19,211 nucleotides of DNA from the IMG/VR virus record IMGVR_UViG_2687453529_000007; one strand, 5' to 3'. The notes under the pieces were generated by a model. That model saw only the letters and a program-made list of their open reading frames with translations. It did not search any database and was not told the origin of the DNA. How positions within the stretch are numbered: the first letter of the stretch is position 1; every line of letters starts with the position of its first letter. The stretch comes from a virus. Taxonomy: Duplodnaviria; Heunggongvirae; Uroviricota; Caudoviricetes. Position numbers and translations under genes: made by a program. Positions 1,509 through 18,419 of the stretch are shown here, in pieces.

Positions 1509-2635
1509 TGGAACGTCTGCGTTACCCGAACGTTATCCGTGAAGAGATTGAACGTCTGCTGGAGAACATTACTGTTCTGGCAGAAGCGGCGGCGCTGGCA
1601 ACGTCTCCGGCGCTGACAGATGAACTGGTCAGCCACGGCGAGCTGATGTCGACCCTGCTGTTTGTCGAAATCCTGCGCGAACGCGATGTTCAGGCACAGT
1701 GGTTTGATGTACGTAAAGTGATGCGTACCAACGACCGATTTGGTCGTGCAGAGCCAGATGTAGCCGCGCTGGCGGAACTGGCCGCGCTGCAGCTGCTCCC
1801 ACGCCTCAATGAAGGCTTAGTGATCACCCAGGGATTTATCGGTAGCGAAAATAAAGGTCGTACAACGACGCTTGGCCGTGGAGGCAGCGATTATACGGCA
1901 GCCTTGCTGGCGGAGGCTTTACACGCAACTCGTGTTGATATCTGGACCGACGTCCCTGGCATCTACACCACCGATCCACGCGTGGTTTCCGCAGCAAAAC
2001 GCATTGATGAAATCGCGTTTGCCGAAGCGGCAGAGATGGCAACTTTTGGTGCAAAAGTACTGCATCCGGCAACGTTGCTACCCGCAGTACGCAGCGATAT
2101 CCCGGTCTTTGTCGGCTCCAGCAAAGACCCACGCGCAGGTGGTACGCTGGTGTGCAATAAAACTGAAAATCCGCCGCTGTTCCGCGCGCTGGCGCTTCGT
2201 CGCAATCAGACTCTGCTCACTTTGCACAGCCTGAATATGCTGCATTCTCGCGGTTTCCTCGCGGAAGTTTTCGGCATCCTCGCGCGGCATAATATTTCGG
2301 TAGACTTAATCACCACGTCAGAAGTGAGCGTGGCATTAACCCTTGATACCACCGGTTCAACCTCCACTGGCGATACGTTGCTGACGCAATCTCTGCTGAT
2401 GGAGCTGTCTGCACTATGCCGGGTAGAAGTGGAGGAAGGTCTGGCGCTGGTCGCGTTGATTGGCAATGACCTGTCAAAAGCCTGCGGCGTTGGCAAAGAG
2501 GTATTCGGCGTACTGGAACCGTTCAACATTCGCATGATTTGTTACGGCGCATCCAGCCATAACCTGTGCTTCCTGGTGCCCGGCGAAGATGCCGAGCAGG
2601 TGGTGCAGAAGCTGCATTTTAATTTATTTGAGTAA
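1509..2635 (+). pseudogene. lysC: lysC (lysine-sensitive aspartokinase III) 3' remnant, lacking about the first 80 codons
   Basis: Translation ERLRYPNVIREEIERLLENITVLAEAAALATSPALTDELVSHGELMSTLLF...QKLHFNLFE is collinear with and near-identical to E. coli LysC from about residue 84 to the C-terminus. No lysC N-terminus or promoter; upstream sequence is the receptor fragment. Stop TAA at 2633-2635. Confidence 0.85.
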
Positions 2636-2647
2636 ACGATCAGTAGA

Positions 2648-2677
2648 GGTGAATAGCGACCCACGACGCTATTCACC
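2648..2677. terminator. Perfect 11-bp stem hairpin between convergent lysC remnant and Mor-like gene (possible bidirectional terminator or element boundary)
   Basis: GGTGAATAGCG-ACCCACGA-CGCTATTCACC; no clear U-tract on either side, so terminator function is uncertain. Confidence 0.3.
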
Positions 2678-2689
2678 ATGCCGGTTCAA

Positions 2690-3037
2690 TTACGAATTAC
2701 TGCGGCGCTGTTGCTTTTCCGCATGTACGCGTTTCACAATCTTATAAATCCATTGCAGCGTCAGATTATATTTCTTCGCTAATTCGGCGTAGTTGCGCCC
2801 ATCGCACTCGCTATAGATTTGGTAGTCACGCTCCGATGCTCGTCCGGAGATCCCCTTAGGGAAATAGATGCTTTGTCCGCCCCAGTTACGCATCATTCGG
2901 TCGGCAATGGCAAAACCCACATTTTCTGCCGATGAACTGTCGAGATTGATGCTTTCAATCAGAACTTGCGATGCATGAAAAGCCAGGTCGTTAATGATCT
3001 CCGGTGTCCGGGCCATCTCTTTTGATTTTCGTATCAT
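2690..3037 (-). CDS. Mor/C-family (phage Mu middle/late operon regulator-like) transcriptional activator, 115 aa
   Basis: C-terminal region DGRNYAELAKKYNLTLQWIYKIVKR aligns with the Mu Mor helix-turn-helix region NGRNVSELTTRYGVTFNTVYKAIRR; GGAG RBS 7 nt upstream of the ATG; divergent from the lysis/tail genes. Confidence 0.75.
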   Translation of the reverse strand: MIRKSKEMARTPEIINDLAFHASQVLIESINLDSSSAENVGFAIADRMMRNWGGQSIYFPKGISGRASERDYQIYSECDGRNYAELAKKYNLTLQWIYKIVKRVHAEKQQRRSNS

Positions 3038-3258
3038 TTTTCATCTCCATATATCTTGCATCCTGAATAAGACCCGATGCGTGTAAAACCACGGATATAC
3101 GCTAAGCAGTTGTCATTACTGCTACTCAATACATTCAATAAACAAATAAACAATCACCAAAAATATAAACTTTTAATATTAATGAACGTCATAAATTCAC
3201 GAAATAAATATATTGTTTGGATTATGTTTCTTATCAACAGGAGTATCATTTTACACTA

Positions 3259-3278
3259 TACTGTATACATATACAGTA
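3259..3278. promoter_or_regulatory. LexA (SOS) operator, near-consensus
   Basis: TACTGTATACATATACAGTA versus consensus TACTGTATATATATACAGTA (CTGT-N8-ACAG core intact, one mismatch). Lies in the AT-rich divergent region between the Mor-like gene and the lysis genes, flanked by -10/-35-like hexamers on both strands. Confidence 0.75.
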
Positions 3279-3574
3279 TTATTTTTACCTGTAGAGTAAA
3301 AAGATCGTTTCCCTCACAGTCGCTGACTTTCTTAAACAAACTTTAAAAATCAAATAACTATCGACTATTCCTACGATCCACCATCATCTTTCCCCTGCAT
3401 AATGACGCGCTTATTAGCCTGGTCACCTTTTGCTCTTTAATTGCTGAGTCGATTTATTAGCGGGCTTGTTCATTTATAGAGAATCTATTTTTTAAACTTA
3501 TTTATTAAAGCTTTTTTCATTCTTCACTGGCGGGTTCTGACGACACTAAACGCTCACTTATCAGGAGATATCGT

Positions 3575-3862
3575 ATGAAAAAAGTCACTTTTCCCCGGCT
3601 TTCCGGCTGGCTAGTCGCTTCCGCCGCGCTGTTTGTCGTGATCGGCTGGACCTCTTCCGCACAGATCCCGGTCGTCATTTATAAACTAAGCCTGGTTTCG
3701 CTTTCCGCGGTGCTGGGATACTGGCTCGATCGCAGTTTGTTCCCCTGGGCACGGCCTGACTCTTTTAGCCCCTGGAAGGAACCTCGTTGCTGCGCGGCGG
3801 CAATGATTCGCCGCGCCATCATCGTTGCCGCCGTCTGTCTTTCCGTCGCCTTAGGGCTATAG
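3575..3862 (+). CDS. Small multi-pass membrane protein, putative holin (95 aa)
   Basis: AGGAG RBS 7 nt upstream; three hydrophobic segments; stop overlaps the start region of the downstream lytic transglycosylase (TAGTGATG). Function inferred from position. Confidence 0.45.
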   Translation: MKKVTFPRLSGWLVASAALFVVIGWTSSAQIPVVIYKLSLVSLSAVLGYWLDRSLFPWARPDSFSPWKEPRCCAAAMIRRAIIVAAVCLSVALGL

Positions 3863-3864
3863 TG

Positions 3865-4470
3865 ATGTGGCTGAAATATATCGCGTCTATGATTATTTTC
3901 GTTCTTTTCCCGCTTAACGCCTCTGAACCGCCGCGAGCCTCTCTGGCATGGCGAAACGAACTAATTCGTACAGCTCGAGAAGTCTGGGGGCTGAATGCTC
4001 CAGTGGCCGACTTTGCCGGGCAATTACACCAGGAGTCCGCCTGGCAGCCAATGGTACGTTCCCCCGTTGGCGCACAAGGTATGGCGCAATTTATGCCTGC
4101 TACAGCGACATGGATAAGCCAGTTGTATCCACAATTGCGTGAAAACAAACCGTATAACCCAACCTGGGCGATTCGCGCGCTGGTGCAATATGACCAGCAT
4201 TTGTGGAAAAACATCTCTGCGAAAAATGATTGTCAGCGTATGGCGTTTACCCTAAGCGCCTATAACGGCGGTCAGGGGTGGGTTAACCGGGATAAAAAAC
4301 TGGCTGCATCCAAAGGGTTAGATGCCACTAGCTGGTTTGGTCATGTTGAGCAAGTCAACGCCGGGCGCAGCGCCACGAACTGGCGAGAAAATCGTCGCTA
4401 TCCAAAGATGATCCTCTATCAACATGCCGCCCGCTATTTACTCTGGGGACAGGCAAGCTGTCTTCATTAA
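3865..4470 (+). CDS. Phage lytic transglycosylase (SLT domain) endolysin with N-terminal signal/SAR-like hydrophobic segment
   Basis: N-terminal MWLKYIASMIIFVLFPLNA hydrophobic stretch, then SLT motifs (LHQESAWQP with catalytic Glu, GMAQFMPATA, AYNGG). The track ORF 3787-4470 begins earlier with a non-ATG codon; ATG at 3865 sits directly after the holin stop. Confidence 0.8.
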   Translation: MWLKYIASMIIFVLFPLNASEPPRASLAWRNELIRTAREVWGLNAPVADFAGQLHQESAWQPMVRSPVGAQGMAQFMPATATWISQLYPQLRENKPYNPTWAIRALVQYDQHLWKNISAKNDCQRMAFTLSAYNGGQGWVNRDKKLAASKGLDATSWFGHVEQVNAGRSATNWRENRRYPKMILYQHAARYLLWGQASCLH

Positions 4471-4482
4471 TCAGAGGGGCCG

Positions 4483-4797
4483 ATGAAACTCAGTATCGAT
4501 TTTTGGGAAGTGATCTCCCTTATGCTTTCCTTCGTTGGATTAATGTTTGCTGCCGGAAAACTGCTGTTAGCACAAATTGAAAAACGACTTAATGAGCGTT
4601 TTGAGTCTCTGGAAAATGCCCGCAGGGAATCAGAAACAAGTTGGTCGAAACTGGAAAGAGAATTTCTCGAATTTCGTGCCGAGCTTCCGCTGCATTATGT
4701 CCGCAGAGAAGATTATCTTCGTGGGCAAGCAGTATTAGAAGCGAAGCTGGATGCCTTATATAGCAAAATCGAGCTGTTACAACGTGGCAGTTATTGA
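4483..4797 (+). CDS. Lysis accessory protein, Rz/i-spanin-like (N-terminal TM helix + coiled coil), 104 aa
   Basis: N-terminal TM segment EVISLMLSFVGLMFAAGKLLLA followed by charged coiled-coil-like sequence; position after the endolysin. No convincing embedded lipoprotein (o-spanin) ORF found by eye. Confidence 0.4.
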   Translation: MKLSIDFWEVISLMLSFVGLMFAAGKLLLAQIEKRLNERFESLENARRESETSWSKLEREFLEFRAELPLHYVRREDYLRGQAVLEAKLDALYSKIELLQRGSY

Positions 4798-4802
4798 AAA
4801 AT

Positions 4803-4834
4803 CCCCACCCTTATGTAAGGGTGGGGATTTTTTT
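4803..4834 (+). terminator. Rho-independent terminator closing the lysis cassette
   Basis: CCCCACCC-TTATGTAA-GGGTGGGG stem-loop followed by ATTTTTTT; an A-run upstream makes it potentially bidirectional. Confidence 0.85.
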
Positions 4835-4941
4835 AACCATTCAATTTTTTCTCTAAATCACATTAAAAGATTCTTCACCTTCGCTGCTTCAGAATACATT
4901 TCAACGATAACGAAGTGAGCGGTAATTAAGGTACAGCCTAT

Positions 4942-5397
4942 ATGGAAATTTTATCTGTAATGAATTCTGTTGTGACCAGATTACGTGAACACAACTCCGA
5001 AATGGATATATTTATTTCATCTAAGGATGCCCAGAAATATATTCCACAGACACAACGAGTTGCAGTGATTATTAATTATAGCGGTTCTGTCTTTGCTACG
5101 CCCGAAAGCAGTAATGCCATCGTGCAACAGCAAATACTCCGCTTAACCGCCACCGTTATTGTTGGCAAAAATTGTGATGCATTAAACGCACTTGATCACA
5201 TACGCAGCGCATTGGGTGGCCTTCCGCTTCCTGATTGTGATCGTCTGCTTTGGCTTGAAAAAGAAATTAATACGGGTGAGAGCGGCGGTTTCTGCCGCTA
5301 CATCCTGGAAATGGCGACCAGCTCGCTGTTTATCGCTGAACAGGAAAGCACGGATCTTCCCCTGCTTACGGAAGTTAACTACGAGGAAACTGAATGA
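4942..5397 (+). CDS. Putative tail completion / sheath-terminator-like protein (151 aa)
   Basis: First gene after the terminator, immediately upstream of a small ORF and the sheath gene, coupled to the next ORF. Family assignment is by position only. Confidence 0.35.
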   Translation: MEILSVMNSVVTRLREHNSEMDIFISSKDAQKYIPQTQRVAVIINYSGSVFATPESSNAIVQQQILRLTATVIVGKNCDALNALDHIRSALGGLPLPDCDRLLWLEKEINTGESGGFCRYILEMATSSLFIAEQESTDLPLLTEVNYEETE

Positions 5398-5591
5398 AAT
5401 ACATCTACAACGGCCCAGCAAGCGGCGTCACCCTTGCCGATGGACAAGAAATCTTATTGTGGCCGAACAGTGAAATTGATCTGCCAGAAGACAACGAGTG
5501 GGTCATGACCATGATTGCCCGCAATCATCTGACTCCTGTCATCACTCAGGAAGAACAAAATAACGTAGAGGAAATTGTACATGGCAGCTAA
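5394..5591 (+). CDS. Small conserved phage tail-module protein (65 aa) preceding the sheath gene
   Basis: GAGGAA RBS; ATG overlaps the upstream stop (ATGA); 3' end overlaps the sheath start by 11 nt. Function unknown. Confidence 0.4.
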   Translation: MKYIYNGPASGVTLADGQEILLWPNSEIDLPEDNEWVMTMIARNHLTPVITQEEQNNVEEIVHGS

Positions 5592-7005
5592 TTATCTGCA
5601 CGGTGTAGAAACTATTGAAATTGAAACCGGCCCGCGTCCGGTTAAAGCGGTAAAATCCGCCGTCATCGCTTTAATCGGTACATCCCCCTGCGGTCCGGTA
5701 AATAAACCAACATTATGCCTTTCTGAAAGCGATGCTGCGCAGTTTGGCTCGACTCAGGCTAACTTTACGATCCCACAGGCACTGAAGGCAATTTATGACC
5801 ACGGTGCCGGTACGGTGGTGGTGATTAACGTGCTGGATCCGGCAAAACATGGCTCCAACATCAGCAATGAGAGTATCACTTTTGATGCTAACAACCAGGC
5901 GAAGCTCGCTCACCGCAATGTGCGTAACGTGGTACTAAAGCCCTCTTCATCAAATTCATCAACCTTTAACACCGCAGCATTTAGCGTAGATGAACAAACA
6001 GGCATAATTACCCGTAAAGGAGCCGACATTCCTCCTGGTGCGAAAGTTTGTGCCTATTATTCCTGGTGCGACCCTACAAAGGTCACCGCAGCCGATATTA
6101 TCGGTACCGTAAATACCGCAGGCGACCGCACGGGGATGAAACTCCTTCAGGACACCTATAACCTGTACGGTTTCTACGCCAAAATCCTGCTTGCTCCTGT
6201 GTTTTGTACGCAAAAATCGGTGACTACTGAGCTGATTGCACAAGCGGAAAAACTCGGTGCGATTACCTACATTGATGCCCCGATTGGGACAACATTCCAG
6301 CAGGTATTGGCTGGACGCGGTTCGCAAGGGGCTATCAACTTCAATACCAGCTCTGATCGTGCGCGTTTATGTTACCCACATGTCAAAGTTTACGATGGCA
6401 TCACTAACCAGGAAATTCTTGAGCCTCTCTCTTCGCGTGCTGCCGGGCTGCGTGCCAAAGTAGACCTCGAAAAAGGTTTCTGGTGGAGCAACTCAAACCA
6501 GGAAATTCAGGGTATTACCGGTATTGAACGTTCGCTTTCCGCAATGATTGATGATCCACAAAGCGAAGTGAATCAGCTCAACGAAAACGGCATTACCACT
6601 ATTTTCAATAGTTACGGCTCTGGTCTGCGCTTGTGGGGTAACCGCACAGCGGCATGGCCTACCGTGACCCATATGCGTAACTTTGAAAACGTCCGCCGGA
6701 CAGGCGATGTAATCAATGAGTCAATCCGTTATTTCAGTCAGCAGTATATTGATATGCCGATTAATCAGGCACTTATTGACGCGCTGACCGAATCGGTAAA
6801 TACCTGGGGCCGAAAACTGATTGCCGACGGCGCACTGCTTGGCTTTGAGTGCTGGTACGATCCGGCACGAAATTCACCGGCTGAACTCAGCGCCGGGCAT
6901 TTATTGCTGAGCTATAAATTCACCCCGCCACCGCCGCTGGAACGTCTGACGTTTGAAACTGAAATTACTTCTGAATATTTAGTCTCTCTGGAGAGCAATA
7001 GCTAA
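5581..7005 (+). CDS. Contractile tail sheath protein (P2 gpFI-like)
   Basis: N-terminus MAANYLHGVETIEIETG resembles P2 FI (YHHGVQVLEINEG) and the C-terminus LLSYKFTPPPPLERLTFETEITSEYL resembles P2 FI ([26 protein letters not shown]). GAGG RBS 9 nt upstream of ATG 5581; the track ORF begins at TTG 5575. Confidence 0.9.
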   Translation: MAANYLHGVETIEIETGPRPVKAVKSAVIALIGTSPCGPVNKPTLCLSESDAAQFGSTQANFTIPQALKAIYDHGAGTVVVINVLDPAKHGSNISNESITFDANNQAKLAHRNVRNVVLKPSSSNSSTFNTAAFSVDEQTGIITRKGADIPPGAKVCAYYSWCDPTKVTAADIIGTVNTAGDRTGMKLLQDTYNLYGFYAKILLAPVFCTQKSVTTELIAQAEKLGAITYIDAPIGTTFQQVLAGRGSQGAINFNTSSDRARLCYPHVKVYDGITNQEILEPLSSRAAGLRAKVDLEKGFWWSNSNQEIQGITGIERSLSAMIDDPQSEVNQLNENGITTIFNSYGSGLRLWGNRTAAWPTVTHMRNFENVRRTGDVINESIRYFSQQYIDMPINQALIDALTESVNTWGRKLIADGALLGFECWYDPARNSPAELSAGHLLLSYKFTPPPPLERLTFETEITSEYLVSLESNS

Positions 7006-7529
7006 TGGCTGGAAAAATTCAAATTAACCGTATTACCAACGCCAATATTTATCTCGATGGTAATAACCTTTTAGGTCGTGCAACAGAAATTAAATTGCCG
7101 GATGTAAGTTTAATTATGCAGGAGCATAAAGCACTGGGCATGGTGGGTAAAATCGAACTCCCGGCAGGTTTCGATAAACTGGAGGGCGAAATTAAATGGA
7201 ACTCCTTCTATCAGGACGTAATGCGTAAAACGGCAAACCCGTGGCAGGCGGTTGCATTACAGTGCCGCTCCAGTATTGATTGCTATAACTCCCAGGGGAA
7301 AGCGAATCAATTAGCGCTAGTGACACATTTAACCGTGATGTTTAAAAAGAATCCACTGGGCACATTTAAACAGAATGAAAACCCGGAATTCAGCAGCGCC
7401 TTTGGTTGCACTTATATTAAACAAGTAGTTGATGGTGAAACGCTGCTTGAACTTGATTATATGGCCAATATTTTCCGGGTTAATGGTGTGGATCAATTAA
7501 GTACCTATCGCAATAACATCGGTGGCTAA
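7005..7529 (+). CDS. Tail tube protein (P2 gpFII-like)
   Basis: Start overlaps the sheath stop; C-terminus NGVDQLSTYRNNIGG matches the P2 FII end NGVDRLEQHRRNIGL. Confidence 0.85.
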   Translation: MAGKIQINRITNANIYLDGNNLLGRATEIKLPDVSLIMQEHKALGMVGKIELPAGFDKLEGEIKWNSFYQDVMRKTANPWQAVALQCRSSIDCYNSQGKANQLALVTHLTVMFKKNPLGTFKQNENPEFSSAFGCTYIKQVVDGETLLELDYMANIFRVNGVDQLSTYRNNIGG

Positions 7530-7579
7530 GTTATTCGGGGCTACGGCCCCGAACTTTGCAAAATAAATAAGGACACAAA

Positions 7580-7897
7580 ATGAAAGAACATTATATCTTG
7601 CAGTTTCCATTTACGTCGGCAGCAGGAAATAATATCGACACGCTGCAATTACGTCGCCTGAAAGTAAAAGATATGCGCAACGCCCGCCGGATCAGCGAAA
7701 AGCCAGAAGAGTGGGATGAACCGCTGATGGCGGCGATGACCGGACTGGTGCCAGAAGATTTAGCCGAAATGGATTTGCTGGATTACCAGGCATTGCAGAA
7801 ACGATTTCAATCCATGCTTACCGTGGTTACAGAATCCTCCCCTGCTATGGCAGGCAATGGCGCTACTGGCGAGATGGTTTCGCTTTCCGCCCAGTGA
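7580..7897 (+). CDS. Tail assembly chaperone (gpE/gpG-like), short product
   Basis: Small acidic protein between tube and tape measure genes, the position of frameshifting tail chaperones. Confidence 0.6.
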   Translation: MKEHYILQFPFTSAAGNNIDTLQLRRLKVKDMRNARRISEKPEEWDEPLMAAMTGLVPEDLAEMDLLDYQALQKRFQSMLTVVTESSPAMAGNGATGEMVSLSAQ

Positions 7898-7985
7898 GAT
7901 AGACGCCCTTACCGTCGATGACTTTAGCAACTGGCTGGATGAAGCCAGCGCCCAAATAAAAATCGAATATGACTCGCAGACCTGA
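7580..7985 (+). CDS. Frameshift-extended chaperone isoform (E+E'-like), requiring a +1 shift
   Basis: A +1-frame ORF is open from 7764 to the TGA at 7983-7985 and would append ...PPSEIDALTVDDFSNWLDEASAQIKIEYDSQT. The only candidate shift motif seen is CTT_TCC at 7883-7888. Site and mechanism are not proven. Confidence 0.4.
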
Positions 7986-8086
7986 TGTCTGCGAGTTTCC
8001 CAAGCCCGTCAGGTTTATTTCTTCCCTGCCCCTTTTTTTAGAAAAATAACCAGCGGGCCATTATCAATATTTAAAGAGAAACAATT

Positions 8087-8887
8087 TTGGCCAACGATAT
8101 TATTACCCAGCTTCAGGCGCGTAATGAGACGTTGACGCAGGCAATAGCCCGTTACGGCTCACTCAACGCCAGAACATTGTTAACTCTCTCTACTCAGCAG
8201 GCGACAGTTATCAAACTAACGCAGCAGCTTGCCGATTCCGCTCTCCGCCTGGAGGAAAATAGCCGCAGCCGCGCTAATCTGATGGAGAAAACCCAAACAT
8301 TTGCCGGGCAATTTAGCAAAGTATTCAATGTTGAAGCCCCCGACTGGAAGTTGCCGTATGAGTTTCAGGACAACATGGTCAATATGGCGACCAAAGGTGG
8401 GATGAATGCTACAACCCGCGAGACGCTCAGCCTTAATCTGCGCGACTGGAGCATGGATTTTAACCAGCAGCAGACCACCTTACAGAACGCAGCCCAAACG
8501 CTGATCGAAGGCAATTTGTCGTCGATGCAGGATCTCAACCGTTATATGCCGGAGATCGCCAAAGCTGCCACCGCCACGCGCGAAAGTGCTGAAACGTGGG
8601 CGAATGCCGCGCTCGCGACTCATGATCGACTGAATATTGCCCCGGAAAATTTCCACGCCGCGCAAAACATGATGTACGGCATTAGCAAAAGCGGTGGGCC
8701 TGCCATTGCTGAACAAACGCAGTGGATAGAGAAATTTGCAGGTAAAACCGGCGCTCAGGGTCTGGAAGGTATGGCTGAACTGACTGCCGCCATGCAGATC
8801 GCAATGAAAAATGGGGCCAGCGCCAGTGCGGCGGCGGAGAATTTTGAACCACTTTCTGCAAACCACCTTTTCGAAAAAAACCGATAG
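8087..8887 (+). CDS. Tail tape measure protein, N-terminal segment (frame A); TTG start
   Basis: Helical N-terminal region typical of tape measure proteins; ends at TAG 8885-8887 while a second frame continues. In-frame stop at 8072-8074 restricts the start to the TTG at 8087 (RBS AAGAG upstream). Confidence 0.6.
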   Translation: MANDIITQLQARNETLTQAIARYGSLNARTLLTLSTQQATVIKLTQQLADSALRLEENSRSRANLMEKTQTFAGQFSKVFNVEAPDWKLPYEFQDNMVNMATKGGMNATTRETLSLNLRDWSMDFNQQQTTLQNAAQTLIEGNLSSMQDLNRYMPEIAKAATATRESAETWANAALATHDRLNIAPENFHAAQNMMYGISKSGGPAIAEQTQWIEKFAGKTGAQGLEGMAELTAAMQIAMKNGASASAAAENFEPLSANHLFEKNR

Positions 8888-10463
8888 CTGGTTCGCCAGC
8901 CAGGGCGTCGATCTGCAAGGCTCTCTGCTTGAACATCAGCAAAACGGTATGGGTGTTAGCGAAGCCATGACTCATATCGTACAAATGCAGCTTGAGAAGA
9001 TGAACCCGGCGATCCTCGACACCTTCAAACGTACTATGCAGATTGAAGATTTATCTGCTCGCAGCAATGCGCTGCAATCGATGGTGTCGCAATTTAATCT
9101 GGGCGAAATGTTCGGCGATGTGCAAACGGTGGAATTCCTGGCACCTATGCTGGCGAATATGGAGGAATATCGCCAGTTAAAAGCCTCTGCCATGCAAGCC
9201 ACCAGCAAGAATCTGATTAACGCTGACTTTTCTGCGCAAATGGCCTCGCCCATTGAACAGACTAAAGCGTTACAGCTGGCATTAAATGATTTATGGCTCA
9301 GCATTGGTTTGCAGCTTATGCCGGCGATTGGCGAGCTGGCACAAAGCCTTACGACGGTTATTCGCCAGTTCAGCGCCTGGCTACGCGAACATCCGGCGCT
9401 GGTGCAAAACATTGCGAAAATCGTCGGGGCGGTTTGGCTGTTTAACGGCGCGCTGAATGTTTTAAAGCTGGGCGCGAACCTCATCACCTCGCCGTTTATT
9501 CGTCTGGTCGATATCTTCCTGAAAGTCAAGGCAAGTCTGGCGCTCACAGGCGGGGCAAGTAAGATGCTATCAGCGGTTAAGTCATTGGGTGGCGGCGCAA
9601 AATGGCTAATGCAACTGCTTGGTCGTGGCCTGATTGGCGCACTGAAACAGGTAGGTCAGACCGTCTTCTGGTTGGGTAGGGTTTTATTGATGAATCCCAT
9701 TGGTCTGGTCATCACTGCGATTGCGGGCGCTGCTTATCTGATTTGTCGCAACTGGGAGCCTATCTCCAGGTTCTTTTCGACCATCTGGCAACGTATCACC
9801 ACGGCCTTTGACGGCGGCATTGCAGGAATTTGTCGGTTGATTCTCGACTGGTCACCGCTGGAGTTGTTCTATAGCGCCTTTTCCAGTGTGATGAATTGGT
9901 TTGGTGTCGAGATGCCTGCAAGTTTTAGCGAGTTCGGCAGCAATCTTCTGGGCAGTCTGGTTGACGGCATAATGAATGCCTTCCCCGCTCTGAAAGGCAT
10001 TATTGATCAGGTAAAAAACGCCATCCCAGACTGGCTAAAAACCACGATGGGTATTAGTACAGAAGGATCGGCTACAGCTATTACAAGCACGACTAATACC
10101 GCATCCGTCTCCCCCGCGACCGTTGTTCCAGGCGTTGCCGGTGCGATTTTAACACCGCCGGTGGGCAAACAACTCGCGCCATCCGGCAAAACGGCTACGC
10201 CGTCATCGGCGCCAGCGGCAAAAAATACAGCCGCCAAACCCGTATCTGCCTCTTTACCTGGTAAATCCGTAACCAAACCGGCGACGCTACCCTCCCGTTC
10301 CTCAGGAAAAGTCCAGGTAAATTTTTCGCCACAAATTACCGTGCAGGGTAACGGACAAAACACCACTAAAGAGATTCAGAACGTGTTGACGATGAGTAAA
10401 CGCGAACTGGAAAGAATGATTAACGATGTAATGGCGCAGCAGCAGCGCCGGGGGTATGCCTGA
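8811..10463 (+). CDS. Tail tape measure protein, main/C-terminal segment (frame B, +1 relative to frame A)
   Basis: Frame B opens after the TGA at 8805-8807 and encodes typical tape-measure content (LQTTFSKKTDSWFASQGVDLQ motif region, long hydrophobic/Gly-Ala-rich middle, Ser/Thr/Pro-rich tail). Segments together total about 790 aa. Confidence 0.65.
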   Translation: MGPAPVRRRRILNHFLQTTFSKKTDSWFASQGVDLQGSLLEHQQNGMGVSEAMTHIVQMQLEKMNPAILDTFKRTMQIEDLSARSNALQSMVSQFNLGEMFGDVQTVEFLAPMLANMEEYRQLKASAMQATSKNLINADFSAQMASPIEQTKALQLALNDLWLSIGLQLMPAIGELAQSLTTVIRQFSAWLREHPALVQNIAKIVGAVWLFNGALNVLKLGANLITSPFIRLVDIFLKVKASLALTGGASKMLSAVKSLGGGAKWLMQLLGRGLIGALKQVGQTVFWLGRVLLMNPIGLVITAIAGAAYLICRNWEPISRFFSTIWQRITTAFDGGIAGICRLILDWSPLELFYSAFSSVMNWFGVEMPASFSEFGSNLLGSLVDGIMNAFPALKGIIDQVKNAIPDWLKTTMGISTEGSATAITSTTNTASVSPATVVPGVAGAILTPPVGKQLAPSGKTATPSSAPAAKNTAAKPVSASLPGKSVTKPATLPSRSSGKVQVNFSPQITVQGNGQNTTKEIQNVLTMSKRELERMINDVMAQQQRRGYA

Positions 10464-11416
10464 TGTATGCCGTTTTAGGAGAGATTGAATTTAAGGTTGT
10501 CACATTCTGGGACGGCTTTAAAAGCACAATGGGCGTGGATTACGCCACACATGCCCGTATAGAAGGCAAACCCGGCGTGCAGTTTATTGGCGATAAGCTG
10601 GATATGCTGGCGCTGGAATTTTCCCTGCACAGCCAGTTTTGCCAGCCCACAACAGAGCTGAACCGACTGCGTGAAGCCATGCTTGCTCACAAGGCGATGG
10701 CACTGGTATTTGGCAATGGCGATTATCGCGGCTGGTTTGTGATTACGGAGCTAACCGCCACCCACCAGCACACCGATCCCTGGGGCAATGTGATTGCCCA
10801 AAACGGAACGATGTCGCTCCAGGAGTACACCGGCGATCCTAAAAATCCACTTTTACCTCCGGCGATTACCACCCAGGAGCCCAACATCGAGGAAAAGGCG
10901 AGCGATTTTCCCGACAAGGTGGAGTCCTGGTTTGATCAGATATTAAACGCCATCGAAGAAGGTATGCGTAAGGCCAAAGAGATGCTGGATGAACTGACAC
11001 AAGCCATTGAAGATATTAAAAAAACGGTGGCAAAAGTGAAAGCAATGATTAAAGAGGCCAAAGCGTTAAAAGAAAAGTGTGAAAAGATAATTACGTCATT
11101 GAAAAAGACAATCGACGCCATCGAAACCCTGTTTAAACAGCCAATGGATCTGCAAACGCTGGCAGGACTCCCAAAAGCGTTGTCGGCGCAGATTAAAACT
11201 TTACTGGGTAACATGCCAGGTATCCGGGACTGCGCCAATGACGCCAGTACACTGGTTGACCATGCTCAGGCGCTTTTCGACGACATTACCAGCGACATCG
11301 CCGAAGCGACGTTTGATAAAGCCGCAACGTTGGTTGATCAGGCACGAACAACGGTACAACAAACCACTCCCACAGTGAGCCAGCTTGCTGCCGCGACCAT
11401 TACGAGGATCTGGTGA
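10463..11416 (+). CDS. gpU-like tail protein with long C-terminal coiled-coil extension (317 aa)
   Basis: Sits between tape measure and gpX/gpD as P2 gpU does; ATG overlaps the tape measure stop (TGATG). C-terminal ~190 aa are E/K/A-rich predicted coiled coil. Assigned by synteny and weak N-terminal resemblance. Confidence 0.5.
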   Translation: MYAVLGEIEFKVVTFWDGFKSTMGVDYATHARIEGKPGVQFIGDKLDMLALEFSLHSQFCQPTTELNRLREAMLAHKAMALVFGNGDYRGWFVITELTATHQHTDPWGNVIAQNGTMSLQEYTGDPKNPLLPPAITTQEPNIEEKASDFPDKVESWFDQILNAIEEGMRKAKEMLDELTQAIEDIKKTVAKVKAMIKEAKALKEKCEKIITSLKKTIDAIETLFKQPMDLQTLAGLPKALSAQIKTLLGNMPGIRDCANDASTLVDHAQALFDDITSDIAEATFDKAATLVDQARTTVQQTTPTVSQLAAATITRIW

Positions 11417-11625
11417 TGCGATACCTTGAACATATCACCACCGACGGCGAACGCTGGGATAATCTGGCATGGCATTACTACGGTGATGCGCTGGCTTATG
11501 AACGCATAATCGCCGCCAATCCACATGTAGCCATTTACCCGGTACTGCCTTCCGGTATTCAGCTCATTATTCCGGTCATTTCCGTCAATAAAACCTTATC
11601 GGAGATCCCACCATGGCTGAGATAA
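11416..11625 (+). CDS. gpX-like small tail protein (LysM-like fold)
   Basis: Pattern L-x-x-I-x-x-x-x-ERWD-x-L-A-W-x-YYGD...AANP...LPSG matches the P2 gpX family; ATG 11416 overlaps the upstream TGA (track start 11413 is a GTG). Confidence 0.6.
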   Translation: MRYLEHITTDGERWDNLAWHYYGDALAYERIIAANPHVAIYPVLPSGIQLIIPVISVNKTLSEIPPWLR

Positions 11626-12653
11626 GCGTAACTGGTGGCGTCTTTGCCACACTCACGCCCATTTTTACCCTCTGGTATGGGCATAAAGATATCACTTATG
11701 ACATCACACCCTATGTCACCAGCATCAGTTACCACGACAGCATCAAAAACGAGTCGGATACCATCGCAATTACACTGGATGACACAGATGGACGCTGGAT
11801 AAAAGAGTGGTATCCCGGCAAAGGCGATACGCTGGCGCTGCATATGGGTTATCAGGGAGAGAAGCTGCTCGATTGTGGTCAGTATATTATTGATAAAATT
11901 GATATTTCAGCGCCACCTTCTACGGTAAATATTGATGGCATCGCCACTTCCGTCAATCAGGCGCTGCGCACCCGTAACAGCCAGGGTTTTGAAGAAACGA
12001 CGCTTTCGGCTATCGCCAGCCGTATCGCACAAACTCACGGCCTAAAGCTGGTGGGCAAAATCGAGCCTCTGACAATTGACCGGGTGACACAGTACGGCGA
12101 AACCGATGTTGGATTTCTCAAACGTCTGGCCAGTGAATATGGTTATGCCGTAAAAGTGACGACGAAAGAGCTGATTTTTTCACATTTACCCACGCTGCGC
12201 TGCCTGGCACCTGTGAAAAAGATCGACCGCAAAGACGTTTCGCATTTCACCTTCAAAGATACCATTAACCGTATCTACAAAAACGCCACCGTACAGCATC
12301 AAAATAGTAAGAAAAAAGAACTGGTTATCTACACTCACAACAGCCAGCAAAAACCGTCTGCCCGTGGAGTCGGCACCAGTGCCGACACGCTAAAACTGAA
12401 CAGTCGGGCGACGGACGTTGGCGCAGCACAGGCAAAAGCCAACGCTGCACTCGACAGCCACAACGAATATCAGCAAACCGGAACGCTCACAATGATGGGC
12501 TGCCCGGAACTGACGGCGGGCAATAAAATCGAGCTAACCGATTTTGGCGTGCTTTCCGGTCAATGGCTAATTGATAAATCGACTCACAGTTTTGTGCGCA
12601 GCGGCTATACCACTGAAATCGACGTGTCGCGCGGGCCAGCGACCAGCCAGTAA
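11613..12653 (+). CDS. gpD-like tail protein (late control D family; baseplate hub)
   Basis: Collinear similarity to P2 gpD: TLSAIASRIAQ / DVGFLKRLASEYG / C-terminal DFGVLSGQWLIDKSTHSFVRSGYTTEIDV. GGAG RBS. Confidence 0.8.
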   Translation: MAEISVTGGVFATLTPIFTLWYGHKDITYDITPYVTSISYHDSIKNESDTIAITLDDTDGRWIKEWYPGKGDTLALHMGYQGEKLLDCGQYIIDKIDISAPPSTVNIDGIATSVNQALRTRNSQGFEETTLSAIASRIAQTHGLKLVGKIEPLTIDRVTQYGETDVGFLKRLASEYGYAVKVTTKELIFSHLPTLRCLAPVKKIDRKDVSHFTFKDTINRIYKNATVQHQNSKKKELVIYTHNSQQKPSARGVGTSADTLKLNSRATDVGAAQAKANAALDSHNEYQQTGTLTMMGCPELTAGNKIELTDFGVLSGQWLIDKSTHSFVRSGYTTEIDVSRGPATSQ

Positions 12654-12662
12654 GGAGGAAAT

Positions 12663-13364
12663 ATGAAAGGAGTAACCCGTCAAACGGGGATTATCAGCGA
12701 TATTGACGAAACCAGCGTTCGGGTGCGGGTCACGCTCCCGGAGTGTGACAATCTGAAGAGCAACTGGCTTGCGGTACTTCAACGCAATTCCCAGGACAAT
12801 AAAGACTACTGGCTACCGGATATGGGCGAGCAAGTGGAAGTTCTGCTGGACAATAACGGTGAAGATGGCGTGGTGCTGGGCGCAGTTTATTCTACGGTTG
12901 ACACCGCGCCTGTAGCCTCGCGCGACAAACGTTACGTCCAGTTTTCTGATGGCGCAGCGTTTGAATATGACCGCAGCACGCACCAGCTGACGATCAACGG
13001 CGGTATCGAGAAAATCGTGATTGAGGTTATCAACGGTACCTGCCTGACATCGCCCAACGTTGAGATTAAAGCCCAACAGGTCACCGTGACTTCCGATACC
13101 GTCGATGTTAAAGCGACCGATGTCAGCATCGACGCCACTAAGGTCGAGGTTAAAGCAGCAGCAGTGACGGTAGATGCGCCCATGAGCACCTTTACTGGCA
13201 ACGTCACGGTAATGAAAAAACTCACCTGGCTTGGCGGGATGGCAGGAAGTGGAGGCATCGGTAACGCAGCCACGATAACCGGCAATGTCAACGTGATCGG
13301 CAACGTTCAGGCCAGCGGCGCATTGCAGGACAGCGGTGGCAACTCCAACCACCATTCACACTGA
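12663..13364 (+). CDS. gpV-like baseplate spike protein
   Basis: Strong RBS TAAGGAGG; MGEQVEVLLDNNGEDGVVLGAVYS and VQFSDGAAFEYDRSTHQLTINGG match P2 gpV motifs; C-terminal His-rich tip NHHSH. Confidence 0.85.
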   Translation: MKGVTRQTGIISDIDETSVRVRVTLPECDNLKSNWLAVLQRNSQDNKDYWLPDMGEQVEVLLDNNGEDGVVLGAVYSTVDTAPVASRDKRYVQFSDGAAFEYDRSTHQLTINGGIEKIVIEVINGTCLTSPNVEIKAQQVTVTSDTVDVKATDVSIDATKVEVKAAAVTVDAPMSTFTGNVTVMKKLTWLGGMAGSGGIGNAATITGNVNVIGNVQASGALQDSGGNSNHHSH

Positions 13365-13369
13365 CGTTT

Positions 13370-13399
13370 AACCCGCCTGATGGCGGGTTTTCTCTTTTT
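13370..13399 (+). terminator. Intrinsic terminator inside the tail gene cluster (between gpV-like and gpW-like genes)
   Basis: AACCCGCC-TGAT-GGCGGGTT stem-loop followed by TTCTCTTTTT. Confidence 0.7.
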
Positions 13400-13462
13400 A
13401 ATCAATCAGTTTTCTAAATCGCTTTAATATCTCCACAGCCCGTTCAGGGCGAAAATACCCTC

Positions 13463-13822
13463 ATGAACACAAAAACACGCCCCTCAACGCTGCACTGGCA
13501 ACCGGCCTTGCTGCGGCCTGAAGAATACGTCTGCGGACTGGATGATATTCACCAGGCAATACACATCATTCTGCGTACACCGCGCGGCAGTGATCCCCAC
13601 AGACCGCTGTTTGGCAGCAACTTGTGGCACTACATCGATTACCCCATCGAGCGGGCTATCCCGCATGTGGTACGGGAGTCGGTGGAAGCCATCCGCCAGT
13701 GGGAACCGCGCTGTCGGTTGCTGAAGGTGACACCAGTAATCGACGGCGAACATCTGACGTTACGTGTGCAATGGCGCGCCGCTGACGGCGTTATCAACTC
13801 AACGGAGGTGTTATGGCGATAG
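13463..13822 (+). CDS. gpW-like baseplate protein (GPW/gp25 family)
   Basis: ILRTPRGSDPHRPLFGSNLWHYIDYP and WEPR match P2 gpW (ILRTPVGSRVMRRDYGSLL...IDQP, KWEPR). Confidence 0.85.
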   Translation: MNTKTRPSTLHWQPALLRPEEYVCGLDDIHQAIHIILRTPRGSDPHRPLFGSNLWHYIDYPIERAIPHVVRESVEAIRQWEPRCRLLKVTPVIDGEHLTLRVQWRAADGVINSTEVLWR

Positions 13823-14928
13823 CCGAACCCAATTTTATTGACCGCGATCCTGCGCAAATTACCAGTGAGATGATTGCGCAATACGAAGATGCCAGTGGTA
13901 AAAAACTCTATCCGGCACAGGCTGAGCGGTTGCTCATCGACCTGTTTGCCTATCGTGAAAACCTTGTACGCATCGCCATTCAGGAAGCGGCGAAACAAAA
14001 CCTGGTCGCGTATTCCCGCGCGCCAATGCTGGATTATTTAGGAGAGCTGGTGGGCGTTCACCGTTTGCCTGCGCAGCCAGCAAAAACGACGTTGCAGTTT
14101 TCGGTCGTCAGTGCGTATACCAGCAATATCCTGATTCCCCAGGGGACGCGGGCCAGTGCCTCTGATAGCGTGATGTTCGCCACCGATGAAGATGTTCTGC
14201 TTCCGGCCTGGAGTTTGCATATCGCCGTTCCTGCCACCAGCCTCGCAGCAGGTGAACAGGGTAACGGCTGGCAGCCTGCACAAATTAGCGCTCTGGTCGA
14301 CAGGATTGGTCATTATGACATCAACGTAACCAACCTGACTGCGTCAACGGGCGGCTGCGGTGAAGAGAGCGATGACGCATTGCGCCAGCGTATCCAACTG
14401 GCACCAGAAAGCTTTAGTAATGCGGGCAGCTATGGCGCATACCGCTTTCATACGCTTTCTGTTAGCCAGTCGATTATTGACGTTGCAGTACTGGGGCCGG
14501 ACGAGGGATTGCCAGAAGGCTGCGTGGAGATCTACCCGCTAACCCTGAATGGACTGCCAGGAATAGAACTGCTCGCGCAAATCGAACAGGAGGTTAGCAA
14601 GGAGAAAAAACGTCCGCTGACCGACAAAGTGAGTGCGAAATGCGCTCTTCGAGTGCCGTATGAGATCCGTGCGCAGCTAACGCTGTTTACCACCGCCGAT
14701 CAGGAGACAACGCTGGCTGCGGCGCGTAAAGCGATTAGCCTCTGGACGCAACAGCGGCAGAAACATCTGGGGCAAGACATTGTGCCAAACCAGATAATCA
14801 AAGTGTTACAGGTCGATGGCGTCTATGACGTTGCGCTGAACTTGCCTACAAAACGTATTTTGCAGGCGCATGAATGGGCGGAATGCACTGCAATAGACGT
14901 CACGATCGCCGGAGTTAGCGATGGATAA
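13813..14928 (+). CDS. gpJ-like baseplate wedge protein
   Basis: Size, position after gpW and overlapping start (GGAGG RBS) fit the P2 gpJ / Mu gp47 family. Confidence 0.8.
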   Translation: MAIAEPNFIDRDPAQITSEMIAQYEDASGKKLYPAQAERLLIDLFAYRENLVRIAIQEAAKQNLVAYSRAPMLDYLGELVGVHRLPAQPAKTTLQFSVVSAYTSNILIPQGTRASASDSVMFATDEDVLLPAWSLHIAVPATSLAAGEQGNGWQPAQISALVDRIGHYDINVTNLTASTGGCGEESDDALRQRIQLAPESFSNAGSYGAYRFHTLSVSQSIIDVAVLGPDEGLPEGCVEIYPLTLNGLPGIELLAQIEQEVSKEKKRPLTDKVSAKCALRVPYEIRAQLTLFTTADQETTLAAARKAISLWTQQRQKHLGQDIVPNQIIKVLQVDGVYDVALNLPTKRILQAHEWAECTAIDVTIAGVSDG

Positions 14929-15637
14929 ATTGCTACCACCGCCGCCGCTTGCCAGCGATGAGCGTTTTTCGATTCTGGCAAATATCGCCGCCGAGCGTTT
15001 TGCCCAACTCGATCTGACGGCGTTGATGGTTTATCTGGTCGACCTGGTTGATGCTTCGGCATTACCAGCCCTTGCAGAACAATTTCACGTTCAGGGGTTG
15101 GAAGGTTGGTTATTTACCACCGATGAGCGGGAGAAACGCGAGTTAATTAAACAAGCCATTGAACTGCATAAATATAAAGGAACAATTTGGGCGGTGCGGC
15201 GGGTGCTGGAAATACTCTCCTTACCCGGAACTATTTCAGAATGGTTTGAATATGGGGGAAGGGCTTACTTTTTTAAGGTTGATATTACACTAGAGAAAAA
15301 AGGATTAAATGAAGATGAATTCAATGCACTTATCACATTAATTCATGAATATAAAAATGTCCGTTCAAAGCTGGAAAGCATTGTTATTTGGCTTATTAAT
15401 CGAAGCCCAATACCAGTTATTGGCAGTGCCATGCAAGGAGGGGAAGTCATTACAGTATTGCCTCCTGTTGCAGAAAGCCTCAGCCAGTCATCTGGAATAT
15501 TTTTAGCGACAGGTTATTGTGTGGAGGAATATATTCAACTACTACCTTATCAACCCGATCGACTAACACAATCCCAACCGATGAAGGTCGGCACAGGATA
15601 CTGGAGCACCGAAATTATGTCTGTATATCCGGAGTAA
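14921..15637 (+). CDS. gpI-like baseplate/tail protein
   Basis: [15 protein letters not shown] matches P2 gpI HCHKGTIGAIRRVVE; overlaps the gpJ-like stop. Confidence 0.8.
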
Positions 15638-15639
15638 TA

Positions 15640-18406: not shown

Positions 18407-18419
18407 ATCACGCCGGGCT

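Follow-up and report, generated by a model that had tools for sequence, protein, structure and literature searches.

A lysis module without spanin genes heads a headless phage-tail cluster beside lysC in Escherichia coli

The segment from 3575 to 4836 of the DNA analysed here, a stretch of 19,211 nucleotides (IMG/VR record IMGVR_UViG_2687453529_000007; hereafter the window), is a genuine lysis module that heads a headless phage-tail cluster beside lysC in E. coli. Three tightly packed open reading frames were called on the plus strand, at positions 3575-3862 (ORF1), 3865-4470 (ORF2) and 4483-4797 (ORF3), and the same three genes are shown in the RefSeq annotation of identical E. coli loci. The first two genes encode a holin and a transglycosylase endolysin homologous to gp21 and gp22 of phage BcepMu. 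We consider that the segment is probably the lysis module of a domesticated, headless prophage of the Mu-like BcepMu type, which forms an R-tailocin cluster of the carotovoricin type and for which a mechanism is proposed below. An earlier note, made from the letters alone, had described a compact lysis unit with a small membrane protein, a transglycosylase and an Rz-like protein; its observation is confirmed in part, and its interpretation is partly supported.

The small membrane protein of that note is ORF1 (95 amino acids), which was matched to the holin families Holin_2-3 in Pfam (PF13272; E 1e-26, 93.6 bits with a cutoff of 27) and PHROG 1528 ("holin"; E 6e-34). Its hydropathy profile contains three hydrophobic segments, and alignment with the homologues from BcepMu, Yersinia and Pectobacterium identifies it as the orthologue of BcepMu gp21. 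The score, the small size, the three segments (two to three transmembrane segments are expected) and the adjacent endolysin gene all agree with membership of PF13272, a family for which the holin activity is itself predicted. The holin gene is co-oriented with the transglycosylase gene and its stop lies only 2 nt before the start of the latter, which bears out the compact unit that had been described.

ORF2 (201 amino acids) is an SLT lytic transglycosylase endolysin with matches to the Pfam SLT family (PF01464; E 9e-15, 54.7 bits with a cutoff of 21.3), to PHROG 669 ("endolysin"; E 2e-61) and to the catalytic domain of Slt70 (1qsa; E 9e-8). The E-S, GMAQ and AYNGG motifs are intact, and the catalytic residues E57-S58, residues Q75-P78 of the G-M-A-Q-F-M-P motif and residues Y133-G136 of the A-Y-N-G-G motif are invariant in the alignment of homologues. 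The domain score, the catalytic Glu-Ser pair and the downstream motifs are those of an SLT endolysin, and the protein is assigned from its sequence as the orthologue of BcepMu gp22.

The hydrophobic N-terminal segment noted earlier in the transglycosylase agrees with the hydropathy profile, but the suggestion that it makes the protein a SAR endolysin is unlikely to hold. The N-terminus has only 16 uncharged residues with 25% G/A/S/T and ends in L-N-A, followed by S. By comparison, the segments of the SAR references P1 Lyz and R21 have 24 uncharged residues and 50-62% G/A/S/T. A SAR domain would have some 20 or more uncharged residues with abundant Gly, Ala, Ser and Thr, and no such stretch was found at the N-terminus. 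Among about 60 SLT homologues, the hydrophobic core is free to vary, whereas an A-x-A-type site is kept and the mature N-terminus that follows it is conserved, a pattern characteristic of a Sec signal peptide that is cleaved off. Hydropathy and homologue comparison thus favour a cleavable Sec signal peptide over a SAR anchor, and the N-terminus is probably of the former kind, with residues 1-20 (3865-3924, plus strand) predicted as the signal peptide and cleavage placed between MWLKYIASMIIFVLFPLNA and SEPP.

ORF3 (104 amino acids), which had been called Rz-like, was matched to BcepMu gp25 (46% identity, E 2e-35) and to PHROG 462 (E 6e-34), but not to BcepMu Rz (E 0.44); no Pfam or NCBIfam family was matched. 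These comparisons identify it as the orthologue of BcepMu gp25 and not as an Rz-type i-spanin. The protein consists of an N-terminal transmembrane helix and a coiled coil with long helices, which carries the near-invariant motif PLxYVRREDYxRGQxVIEAKLDA. The AF2 model is all helix (pLDDT 77); the model has no match in BFVD, and the sequence has none in the PDB. The gp25-like family is large, with 995 clusters at 50% identity, and is kept wherever the holin and the SLT endolysin are kept. PHROG 462 is labelled "lipoprotein", and a lipoprotein identity was ruled out for ORF3, which has neither a lipobox nor a conserved Cys.

[quoted passage not shown] Such a combination would fit the i-spanin-like gross shape of ORF3 and the hydrophobic N-terminus of the transglycosylase, and SAR transglycosylases do occur in Pseudomonas Mu-like phages (PMC9239132). 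It is nevertheless highly improbable, given that a SAR domain would be longer and less hydrophobic than the N-terminus of the transglycosylase and that the gp25 homologue of complete relatives is located downstream of a genuine Rz/Rz1 pair, in about 70 loci altogether. The net charges also point the other way, with an N-out/C-in bias in 19 of 19 gp25-like members and an N-in bias for lambda Rz, although this rule is weak and a plain K/R count mis-assigns lambda Rz.

The absence of an o-spanin-like lipoprotein gene, which had also been noted, is upheld. No lipoprotein ORF was identified by a lipobox scan of the cassette, including ORFs embedded in 4483-4797, or anywhere on the plus strand of the window, and the scan of the Salmonella cassette was likewise empty. 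As positive controls, Rz1 was recovered by the same scan in BcepMu, Pectobacterium, Yersinia and Mu. Only two lipobox matches were found in the window, both antisense within tail genes, and the rest of the window likewise yielded no hidden o-spanin or u-spanin. Searches of the window by tblastn with three protein queries each for Rz, Rz1 and gp26 yielded nothing (all E > 0.4), and the Rz queries, from BcepMu, Pectobacterium and Yersinia, gave E > 1. The cassette thus contains neither an Rz-family i-spanin homologue nor a lipobox o-spanin ORF, the two components of a two-component spanin.

We surveyed the corresponding region in 80 species-representative loci. The gap between the SLT gene and the ORF3 homologue was 16-28 nt only in the genera with the island at lysC and in Lelliottia, and Rz, Rz1, gp26 and TerS were all absent from these short-gap loci; the two genes are separated by 12 nt in the window. 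All other loci in which the SLT gene was located have a gap of 510-1047 nt, nearly always occupied by an Rz homologue and/or a lipobox ORF, and outside the island genera and Lelliottia the gp25 homologue is always followed by gp26. The clusters of Pectobacterium, Samsonia and Lonsdalea are headless and yet have retained Rz/Rz1. The comparison indicates that Rz/Rz1 and gp26 were cleanly deleted in the island lineage, which left it with neither an i-spanin nor an o-spanin. Since ORF3 follows a genuine Rz/Rz1 pair in the related loci, the cassette lacks the whole spanin and not merely its lipoprotein half. Lambda requires spanins under non-shearing conditions, and a spanin-less cassette may for this reason lyse poorly.

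ORF3 is probably an accessory lysis factor. It shares several features with the Mu gp25 "releasin" (DUF2730, PF10805), namely a length of about 100 amino acids, a transmembrane helix at the N-terminus and a C-terminal part that is helical. Both proteins are predicted to be N-out/C-in from their charge bias, and both are encoded a few genes after the endolysin, past the spanin genes, in the late regions of transposable phages. ORF3 agrees in predicted topology and in position (at most five genes after the endolysin) with the description of releasins (PMC9239132). However, no sequence relationship was detectable: BLAST, Pfam searches with 19 and 74 members and profile-profile comparison were all negative, neither ORF3, BcepMu gp25 nor any of the 74 family members matched PF10805, and hhalign gave probabilities of 0.5% and 4.4%. 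Membership of the releasin family was therefore rejected. More tentatively, the gp25-like family could be a class of lysis regulators not described before, tethered to the membrane and partnering a holin and a Sec-exported SLT endolysin, as a sequence-unrelated analogue of the Mu releasin. If so, its retention after the spanin loss, approximately since the split of Escherichia and Salmonella, would mean that the gp25-like factor is indispensable for lysis, and that enteric bacteria can release tailocins without spanins.

Alternatively, the gp25-like protein might replace the spanin or otherwise disrupt the outer membrane, which would explain how Rz/Rz1 could be lost and gp25 retained. It is the only gene of the cassette without an assigned step, it is kept under strong constraint in every headless and spanin-less cluster, and a spanin-independent precedent is given by the phiKT "disruptin", as cited in a preprint (bioRxiv 10.1101/2024.01.23.576932). 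However, the gp25-like protein coexists with Rz/Rz1 in nearly all relatives and is therefore not an alternative to them. Moreover, its predicted topology places the conserved domain in the cytoplasm, and it is neither cationic nor amphipathic in the manner of the disruptin. A substitute for the spanin is thus very unlikely, and we prefer the accessory role.

The lysis genes are part of an island that consists of a gene for a Mor activator, the lysis genes and the tail genes, and that is fixed between lysC and yjbD/rluF. Besides Escherichia, the island is located at lysC in Salmonella (STM4198-4219), Enterobacter, Superficieibacter, Phytobacter and Dryocola. In Salmonella, Enterobacter and Superficieibacter the genes are again arranged as pgi-lysC-Mor-holin-SLT-ORF3-Gp37-sheath, and the gene order is identical in Phytobacter and Dryocola, where lysC and Mor immediately precede it. 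The tail operon begins with a gene for a Gp37-family protein (4942-5397, plus strand; PF09646, E 4e-32), which is followed by genes for the sheath, tube, chaperone, tape measure, baseplate and fibre up to about position 18406. The sheath and tube proteins gave strong family matches and the TAC protein was also matched, in agreement with the RefSeq annotation, and the annotation of the intact reference locus includes no head, integrase or transposase genes. In gene content the island is what would be expected of a tailocin cluster, since it combines a full contractile-tail set and lysis genes but is devoid of genes for the head, packaging or replication. The location of the lysis genes before the tail genes, which had been thought unusual, is the ancestral lysis-head-tail order of Mu and BcepMu collapsed by the loss of the head genes, and the carotovoricin cluster is arranged alike.

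The lysis genes could instead be functionless relics of a decaying prophage, in which the spanin loss was the first step of erosion. Head, integrase and transposase genes are absent, Rz/Rz1 and gp26 are gone, about 96% of the complete E. coli genomes are without the island, and IS elements and resistance insertions have struck it repeatedly. In the strain of the window, the tape-measure gene has a frameshifting 1-nt insertion and lysC is truncated by IS903B, for which reasons the particle may not be made there. Against such decay, the three ORFs are intact and under strong purifying selection, with dN/dS values relative to Salmonella of 0.08 for the holin, 0.085 for the SLT endolysin and 0.05 for ORF3 (0.05-0.09 for all three across genera), and with dS values of about 1.05-1.9 that resemble the 1.15 of the neighbouring core gene lysC. 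In addition, conservation extends to the LexA box and the promoter motifs and partially to the terminator, the tail gene set is intact in reference strains, and the homologous carotovoricin cluster is a working tailocin. The cassette was identified in 196 of 5426 complete E. coli genomes, and in the sampled entries it is single-copy, chromosomal and annotated as intact. Strains CFSAN061771 and MS6198 are examples with an intact island, whereas E. coli K-12 has none. We therefore regard a mere remnant as unlikely and retain the domesticated tailocin cluster as the preferred explanation.

The sole regulator gene in the island encodes a Mor/C-family transcription activator (2690-3037, minus strand; PF08765, E 7e-38) and is divergent from the lysis genes. 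It was also matched to PHROG 532, "late transcriptional activator", and is located beside lysC in six genera. A near-consensus LexA (SOS) box, TACTGTATACATATACAGTA, was predicted at 3259-3278 on the plus strand with one mismatch to the 20-nt consensus, and none of 200 shuffles gave a match at three or fewer mismatches. The box overlaps the spacer and the -10 element of a predicted sigma-70-like promoter (TTTACA-16-TACAGT, 3250-3277, plus strand) identified in a promoter scan, which faces the holin gene and lies about 290 nt upstream of its start. The LexA box and the -35 element are conserved in Salmonella, two Superficieibacter species, Phytobacter and Dryocola, and the box is missing in Enterobacter cancerogenus. 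The candidate hexamers of a minus-strand mor promoter near the box are not conserved in Salmonella.

Closer to the holin gene, a comparison of E. coli, Salmonella and Superficieibacter revealed an AT-rich block (TTTTTTAAAnTTATTTATTAAAGC..TTTTCnTTCTTC; 3492-3530, plus strand), located about 50-80 nt before the holin start and conserved while its flanks diverge. The block is a candidate for an activator-dependent late promoter. A second conserved motif, CTAAATCACATTAAAAG (YTAAW-N4-WTTARAAG; 4853-4869, plus strand), lies about 75 nt before the first tail gene and is kept in E. coli, Salmonella, Enterobacter, Superficieibacter, Phytobacter, Dryocola, Lelliottia, Pectobacterium and Samsonia. At two or fewer mismatches it has two matches in the window, as compared to 0.66 expected by chance, and the only other match is on the minus strand at 2616-2632 with two mismatches; no second good copy of the full motif was found in the window. 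It is a candidate promoter of the tail operon or activator site. A motif common to the upstream regions of the holin and gp37 genes is tentative at most: ATTAAA(A)G is present in both, but the spacing differs. No Rfam family was identified in the window at the gathering score. A lysine riboswitch is missing from the window.

The strong hairpin terminator that had been noted at the end of the unit was confirmed at about 4800-4836 on the plus strand, with the stems AATCCCCACCCTT and AAGGGTGGGGATT forming 13 bp around a 4-nt loop, followed by a run of seven T residues. The predicted fold has an energy of -28.3 kcal/mol (z = -6.9), which was not reached by any of 200 shuffles, and the terminator is potentially bidirectional because of an upstream A-run. 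In Salmonella and two Superficieibacter species the corresponding position is taken by a hairpin whose stem bases differ. No such hairpin was found in Enterobacter, Dryocola and Lelliottia, that is, in three of the eight spanin-less relatives examined. The proposed insulation of the lysis genes from the tail genes is thus not a fixed feature.

These elements suggest the following course of events. DNA damage would remove LexA from the box at 3259-3278 and thereby open the rightward promoter, and the Mor-family activator would presumably drive late promoters before the holin and gp37 genes. The SLT endolysin, as judged from its sequence, would be exported via Sec by the cleavable signal peptide and build up in the periplasm, while the three-segment holin would build up in the inner membrane until triggering collapses the membrane potential. 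By analogy with exported endolysins, this collapse would license the degradation of the cell wall. The gp25-like protein, membrane-tethered and helical with its C-terminus probably in the cytoplasm, would modulate the holin or the endolysin step. With the ancestral Rz/Rz1 and gp26 deleted there would be no spanin step, and the outer membrane would then fail passively or by some other route.

We also compared the island to known systems. In BcepMu, the order is gp21 (holin), gp22 (SLT), gp23 (Rz), gp24 (Rz1), gp25, gp26 and TerS, and the holin (57% identity), the SLT endolysin (53%) and the gp25-like protein (46%) of the island are orthologous and arranged in the same order, followed in both by a Gp37-family protein and a contractile-tail gene set. 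The two differ in that the embedded Rz/Rz1 pair and gp26 of BcepMu are deleted in the island, in that the island has no head genes, packaging genes or transposition module, and in the Mor gene and LexA box directly upstream of the island genes. Unlike the island, with its holin and a transglycosylase probably exported by a signal peptide, Mu has no holin and uses the SAR muramidase gp22.

Carotovoricin (Ctv) of Pectobacterium is described as a Mu-type tailocin with a lysis cassette and SOS/LexA control but without a repressor of its own (PMC13566846; PMC6813493). Its cluster is likewise headless, with the order holin, SLT, gp25 homologue, Gp37, sheath and tube, and the motif upstream of gp37 is common to both. 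In contrast to the island, Ctv retains gp26 and a 224-residue Rz in which Rz1 is embedded, is not flanked by a Mor gene, shows no LexA box within the flank searched, and occupies another chromosomal site, where it carries a ferredoxin gene. The ferredoxin gene named in the carotovoricin literature was found in locus L006. The R-pyocin and other Pseudomonas tailocins resemble the island in having lysis genes beside tail genes in a chromosomal, SOS-responsive cluster, and some Pseudomonas clusters also lack an rz/rz1 pair (PMC4684702). They differ in their unrelated holin, endolysin and regulator families and in their P2/phiCTX-type rather than Mu/BcepMu-type ancestry.

The results identify a candidate tailocin island of the carotovoricin type, with a predicted LexA (SOS) operator, that is shared by E. 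coli, Salmonella and Enterobacter; among the carriers are clinical lineages that have resistance transposons inserted within the island or next to it. They also correct a likely mis-annotation, in that a protein with a transmembrane segment and a coiled coil beside an endolysin is not automatically Rz, and that the "lipoprotein" label of PHROG 462 has no lipobox behind it in the gp25-like family. The island amounts to a natural experiment, in which one lineage lost its spanins but retained, under strong constraint, the holin, the endolysin and the gp25-like protein, in contrast to the sister tailocins of Pectobacterium that retained their spanins. Both the need for spanins in tailocin release and the role of the gp25-like family are thereby made testable in a genetically easy host.

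A literature search on an E. coli or Salmonella tailocin at lysC and on the Salmonella locus tags returned no paper describing the island. Incidental expression of its genes has been published, with STM4217 upregulated in a dps mutant and STM4213 upregulated with indole.

The three plus-strand genes ORF1, ORF2 and ORF3, together with the hairpin terminator behind them, constitute a genuine lysis module, which is a new variant of the BcepMu/carotovoricin cassette that has no spanins, i.e., neither the Rz-type i-spanin nor the Rz1-type lipoprotein (o-spanin) of the outer-membrane step. ORF1 (3575-3862) matches the Pfam family Holin_2-3 (E 1e-26) and PHROG 1528 (“holin”), and hydropathy analysis places three hydrophobic segments in it. 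ORF2 (3865-4470) matches the SLT transglycosylase family (E 9e-15), PHROG 669 (“endolysin”, E 2e-61) and the Slt70 catalytic domain, and its Glu-Ser catalytic motif and other SLT motifs are invariant across homologs. These holin and endolysin matches bear out the lysis function proposed in the earlier note. ORF3 (4483-4797) completes a unit of three real, tightly packed genes, and the strong terminator noted at its end was recovered at 4800-4836 (plus strand, -28.3 kcal/mol, z = -6.9, T7 tail). The gene-level description in that note was largely right, except for the terms “Rz-like,” “SAR” and “unusual layout.”

The window derives from an E. coli chromosome, with positions 1509-19211 being 99.98% identical to strain CFSAN061771. 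In that strain, the left end consists of pgi, a lysine riboswitch, lysC and an opposite-strand Mor-family gene, followed by lysis genes labeled “putative holin,” “transglycosylase SLT” and “membrane protein,” and then by genes for Gp37, tail sheath, tube, chaperone, tape measure, baseplate, tail fiber and fiber chaperones; a nucleotidyltransferase gene, a slipin gene, yjbD and rluF make up the right end. Since no head, packaging, integrase, transposase or replication genes are annotated in the CFSAN061771 island, the cassette heads a headless contractile-tail cluster. The island appears to be previously uncharacterized: no paper on it was found, and STM4213 and STM4217 turned up in incidental expression data only. 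In the window itself, positions 1-1511 hold an IS903B transposase gene (1-924) and a TonB-dependent receptor gene fragment, a unit common on E. coli plasmids and chromosomes, in place of pgi, the riboswitch and the start of lysC. The junction with lysC lies at ~1509, the first ~223 nt of lysC and the lysine riboswitch are missing, and no Rfam riboswitch match was obtained anywhere in the window.

The third gene had been taken for Rz-like, but it is 46% identical to gp25 of BcepMu (E 2e-35) and unrelated to the BcepMu Rz protein, gp23 (E 0.44). The gene order in BcepMu is gp21 (holin), gp22 (SLT endolysin), gp23 (Rz), gp24 (Rz1, embedded), gp25, gp26 and TerS. Searches by tblastn with Rz, Rz1 and gp26 from BcepMu, Pectobacterium and a Mu-like prophage of Yersinia gave no match in the window, where the gap between the SLT stop codon and the ORF3 start is just 12 nt. 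A lipobox scan of the window yielded no plausible lipoprotein gene, the only two matches being antisense within tail genes, and none was found in the Salmonella cassette. Because the same scan recovered Rz1 in BcepMu, Pectobacterium, Yersinia and Mu, the earlier statement that an o-spanin is lacking was correct, and these searches indicate that the i-spanin is missing as well.

To place the cassette among its relatives, one locus was taken from each of 80 species encoding an ORF3 relative, and the loci were classified into three classes. Class 1 comprises complete BcepMu-like phages of many Beta- and Gammaproteobacteria with holin, SLT, gap, gp25 homolog, gp26 and TerS, the SLT-to-gp25 gap (510-1047 nt) nearly always containing an Rz homolog and/or a lipobox ORF. 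Class 2, which occurs in 11 Pectobacterium species, Samsonia and Lonsdalea, is headless and retains Rz/Rz1 and gp26 ahead of the Gp37 and sheath genes. In Pectobacterium, this is the cluster for carotovoricin, a tailocin described as Mu-type and as having a lysis cassette (PMC6813493, PMC13566846), and it contains the ferredoxin gene named for carotovoricin (PMC6813493). In class 3, also headless and without gp26, the SLT gene is joined directly to the gp25 homolog (16-28 nt). Its members in E. coli, Salmonella (STM4198-4219), Enterobacter, two Superficieibacter species, Phytobacter and Dryocola have Mor and lysC just upstream, and Lelliottia carries it at another site. By this classification, the loss of spanins is a derived trait of one enterobacterial lineage. 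In Lelliottia wanjuensis (L013/L018), the spanin-less holin, SLT, gp25-like, Gp37 and sheath genes adjoin a Mu-type early region with an HTH repressor and an rve transposase in place of Mor and lysC, an arrangement that may represent an intermediate or mobile form of the headless element.

The cassette genes are under clear constraint. Between E. coli and Salmonella, the dN/dS ratios of holin, SLT and ORF3 were 0.079, 0.085 and 0.051, respectively, values that are approximate since dS is near saturation, and similar ratios were obtained for tail sheath and tube. The dS values of the cassette genes (1.05-1.9), compared to 1.15 for the adjacent core gene lysC, are compatible with long residence at this site. 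The cassette is present as one chromosomal copy in 196 of 5426 complete E. coli genomes (97.8-100% identity), annotated in the sampled rows as three intact genes. A prophage-derived lysis cassette is in itself ordinary; of interest are its long-term upkeep without spanins and the conserved, unexplained gp25-like factor.

Throughout the survey, loci that retain holin and SLT also retain the gp25-like gene, with or without heads or spanins, which argues for a functional place in the lysis module and against one in head assembly or the spanin. The family (995 clusters at 50% identity, E up to 1e-3) has no Pfam or NCBIfam entry and shares a near-invariant C-terminal motif, PLxYVRREDYxRGQxVIEAKLDA. 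An AF2 model of ORF3 (pLDDT 77) consists of a single N-terminal transmembrane helix running into a long helix, and then a second helix. In all 19 members inspected, the residues preceding the helix carry a net charge of 0 to +1, and those following it include 3-4 Lys/Arg. Topology is only weakly predicted in this way, as a plain Lys/Arg count mis-assigns lambda Rz, which net charge assigns correctly. The PHROG label “lipoprotein” is unsupported, there being no lipobox. In size, N-terminal transmembrane helix, charge bias and gene position the protein resembles the Mu gp25 releasin (DUF2730; PMC9239132), but all sequence tests of a relationship failed; it perhaps works like a releasin without being a member of that family.

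The suggestion that ORF2 is a SAR endolysin was not upheld by its sequence features. Its N-terminus, MWLKYIASMIIFVLFPLNA/SEPPRA, has an uncharged stretch of 16 residues with 25% Gly/Ala/Ser/Thr, as compared to 24 residues with 50-62% in the SAR domains of P1 Lyz and R21. Among five close relatives, and then ~60 homologs, the hydrophobic core is freely variable, and an A-x-A-type site directly precedes the conserved mature N-terminus (ANA/AEPP, VCA/DTIP, AHA/AQPP, ALA/DE, VAA/QVP). This combination points to a cleaved Sec signal peptide.

Upstream of the cassette, a predicted LexA box, TACTGTATACATATACAGTA (3259-3278), has one mismatch to the consensus (0/200 shuffles match at up to 3 mismatches) and overlaps the spacer and -10 element of a rightward promoter, TTTACA-16-TACAGT. 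The box and the -35 element are kept in Salmonella, both Superficieibacter species, Phytobacter and Dryocola, and not in Enterobacter cancerogenus. The prediction would fit carotovoricin, which is reported to lack its own repressor and to be controlled by SOS/LexA (PMC13566846). Between this promoter and the holin start, a non-coding stretch of ~290 nt (3285-3574) includes two blocks, 3299-3325 and 3492-3530, that are shared with Salmonella; it gave no Rfam match, and no ORF of at least 25 aa starts in it.

The claimed insulation from the tail genes is plausible for E. coli, where the terminator is present, and varies between lineages: Salmonella and both Superficieibacter species retain a terminator with other stem bases, that of Phytobacter is weak, and Enterobacter, Dryocola and Lelliottia have none. 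Downstream of it, ~75 nt before gp37, the motif YTAAW-N4-WTTARAAG shows conservation across at least nine genera, Pectobacterium among them, which suggests that the tail operon is served by a promoter or activator site of its own. Terminator and motif together make two transcription units plausible in E. coli. The layout itself is not unusual, being the lysis-first order inherited in common with Mu and BcepMu.

Several further features of the island were observed. The tape-measure gene (8087-10463) has a 1-nt insertion at ~8848 relative to CFSAN061771, which splits it into two frames (8087-8887 and 8811-10463) and reflects either an error in sequencing or a true frameshift that inactivates the gene. 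In E. coli FDAARGOS_497 (L001 24447-38427), the same gene is interrupted by a resistance region with ISEcp1-blaCTX-M-15, Tn3, IS26, aac(3)-IIe, blaOXA-1, aac(6')-Ib-cr and tetR(A); resistance transposons seem to land in the island repeatedly. In the Salmonella version (Infantis, L004 29053-31888; LT2, STM4204-4206), the baseplate V and W genes are separated by an inserted gtrA/gtrB/gtrC-like operon for O-antigen glucosylation, which the E. coli island lacks. Directly after the fiber chaperones, an RlaP-family nucleotidyltransferase (18420-19211, minus strand; PF10127, E 4e-96) is followed in the reference strain by the opposite-strand slipin-family gene, and the two may be a cargo or defense pair at the right end. 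Adjoining 162-nt segments of the tail-fiber gene (16265-16426 and 16433-16594), 84% identical to each other, represent an internal tandem duplication of a fiber repeat. Finally, a 65-aa acidic ORF between the Gp37 and sheath genes (5394-5591, plus strand), without a Pfam or NCBIfam family, is kept in all related clusters and has a match in PHROG 895 (function unknown, E 3.5e-35).
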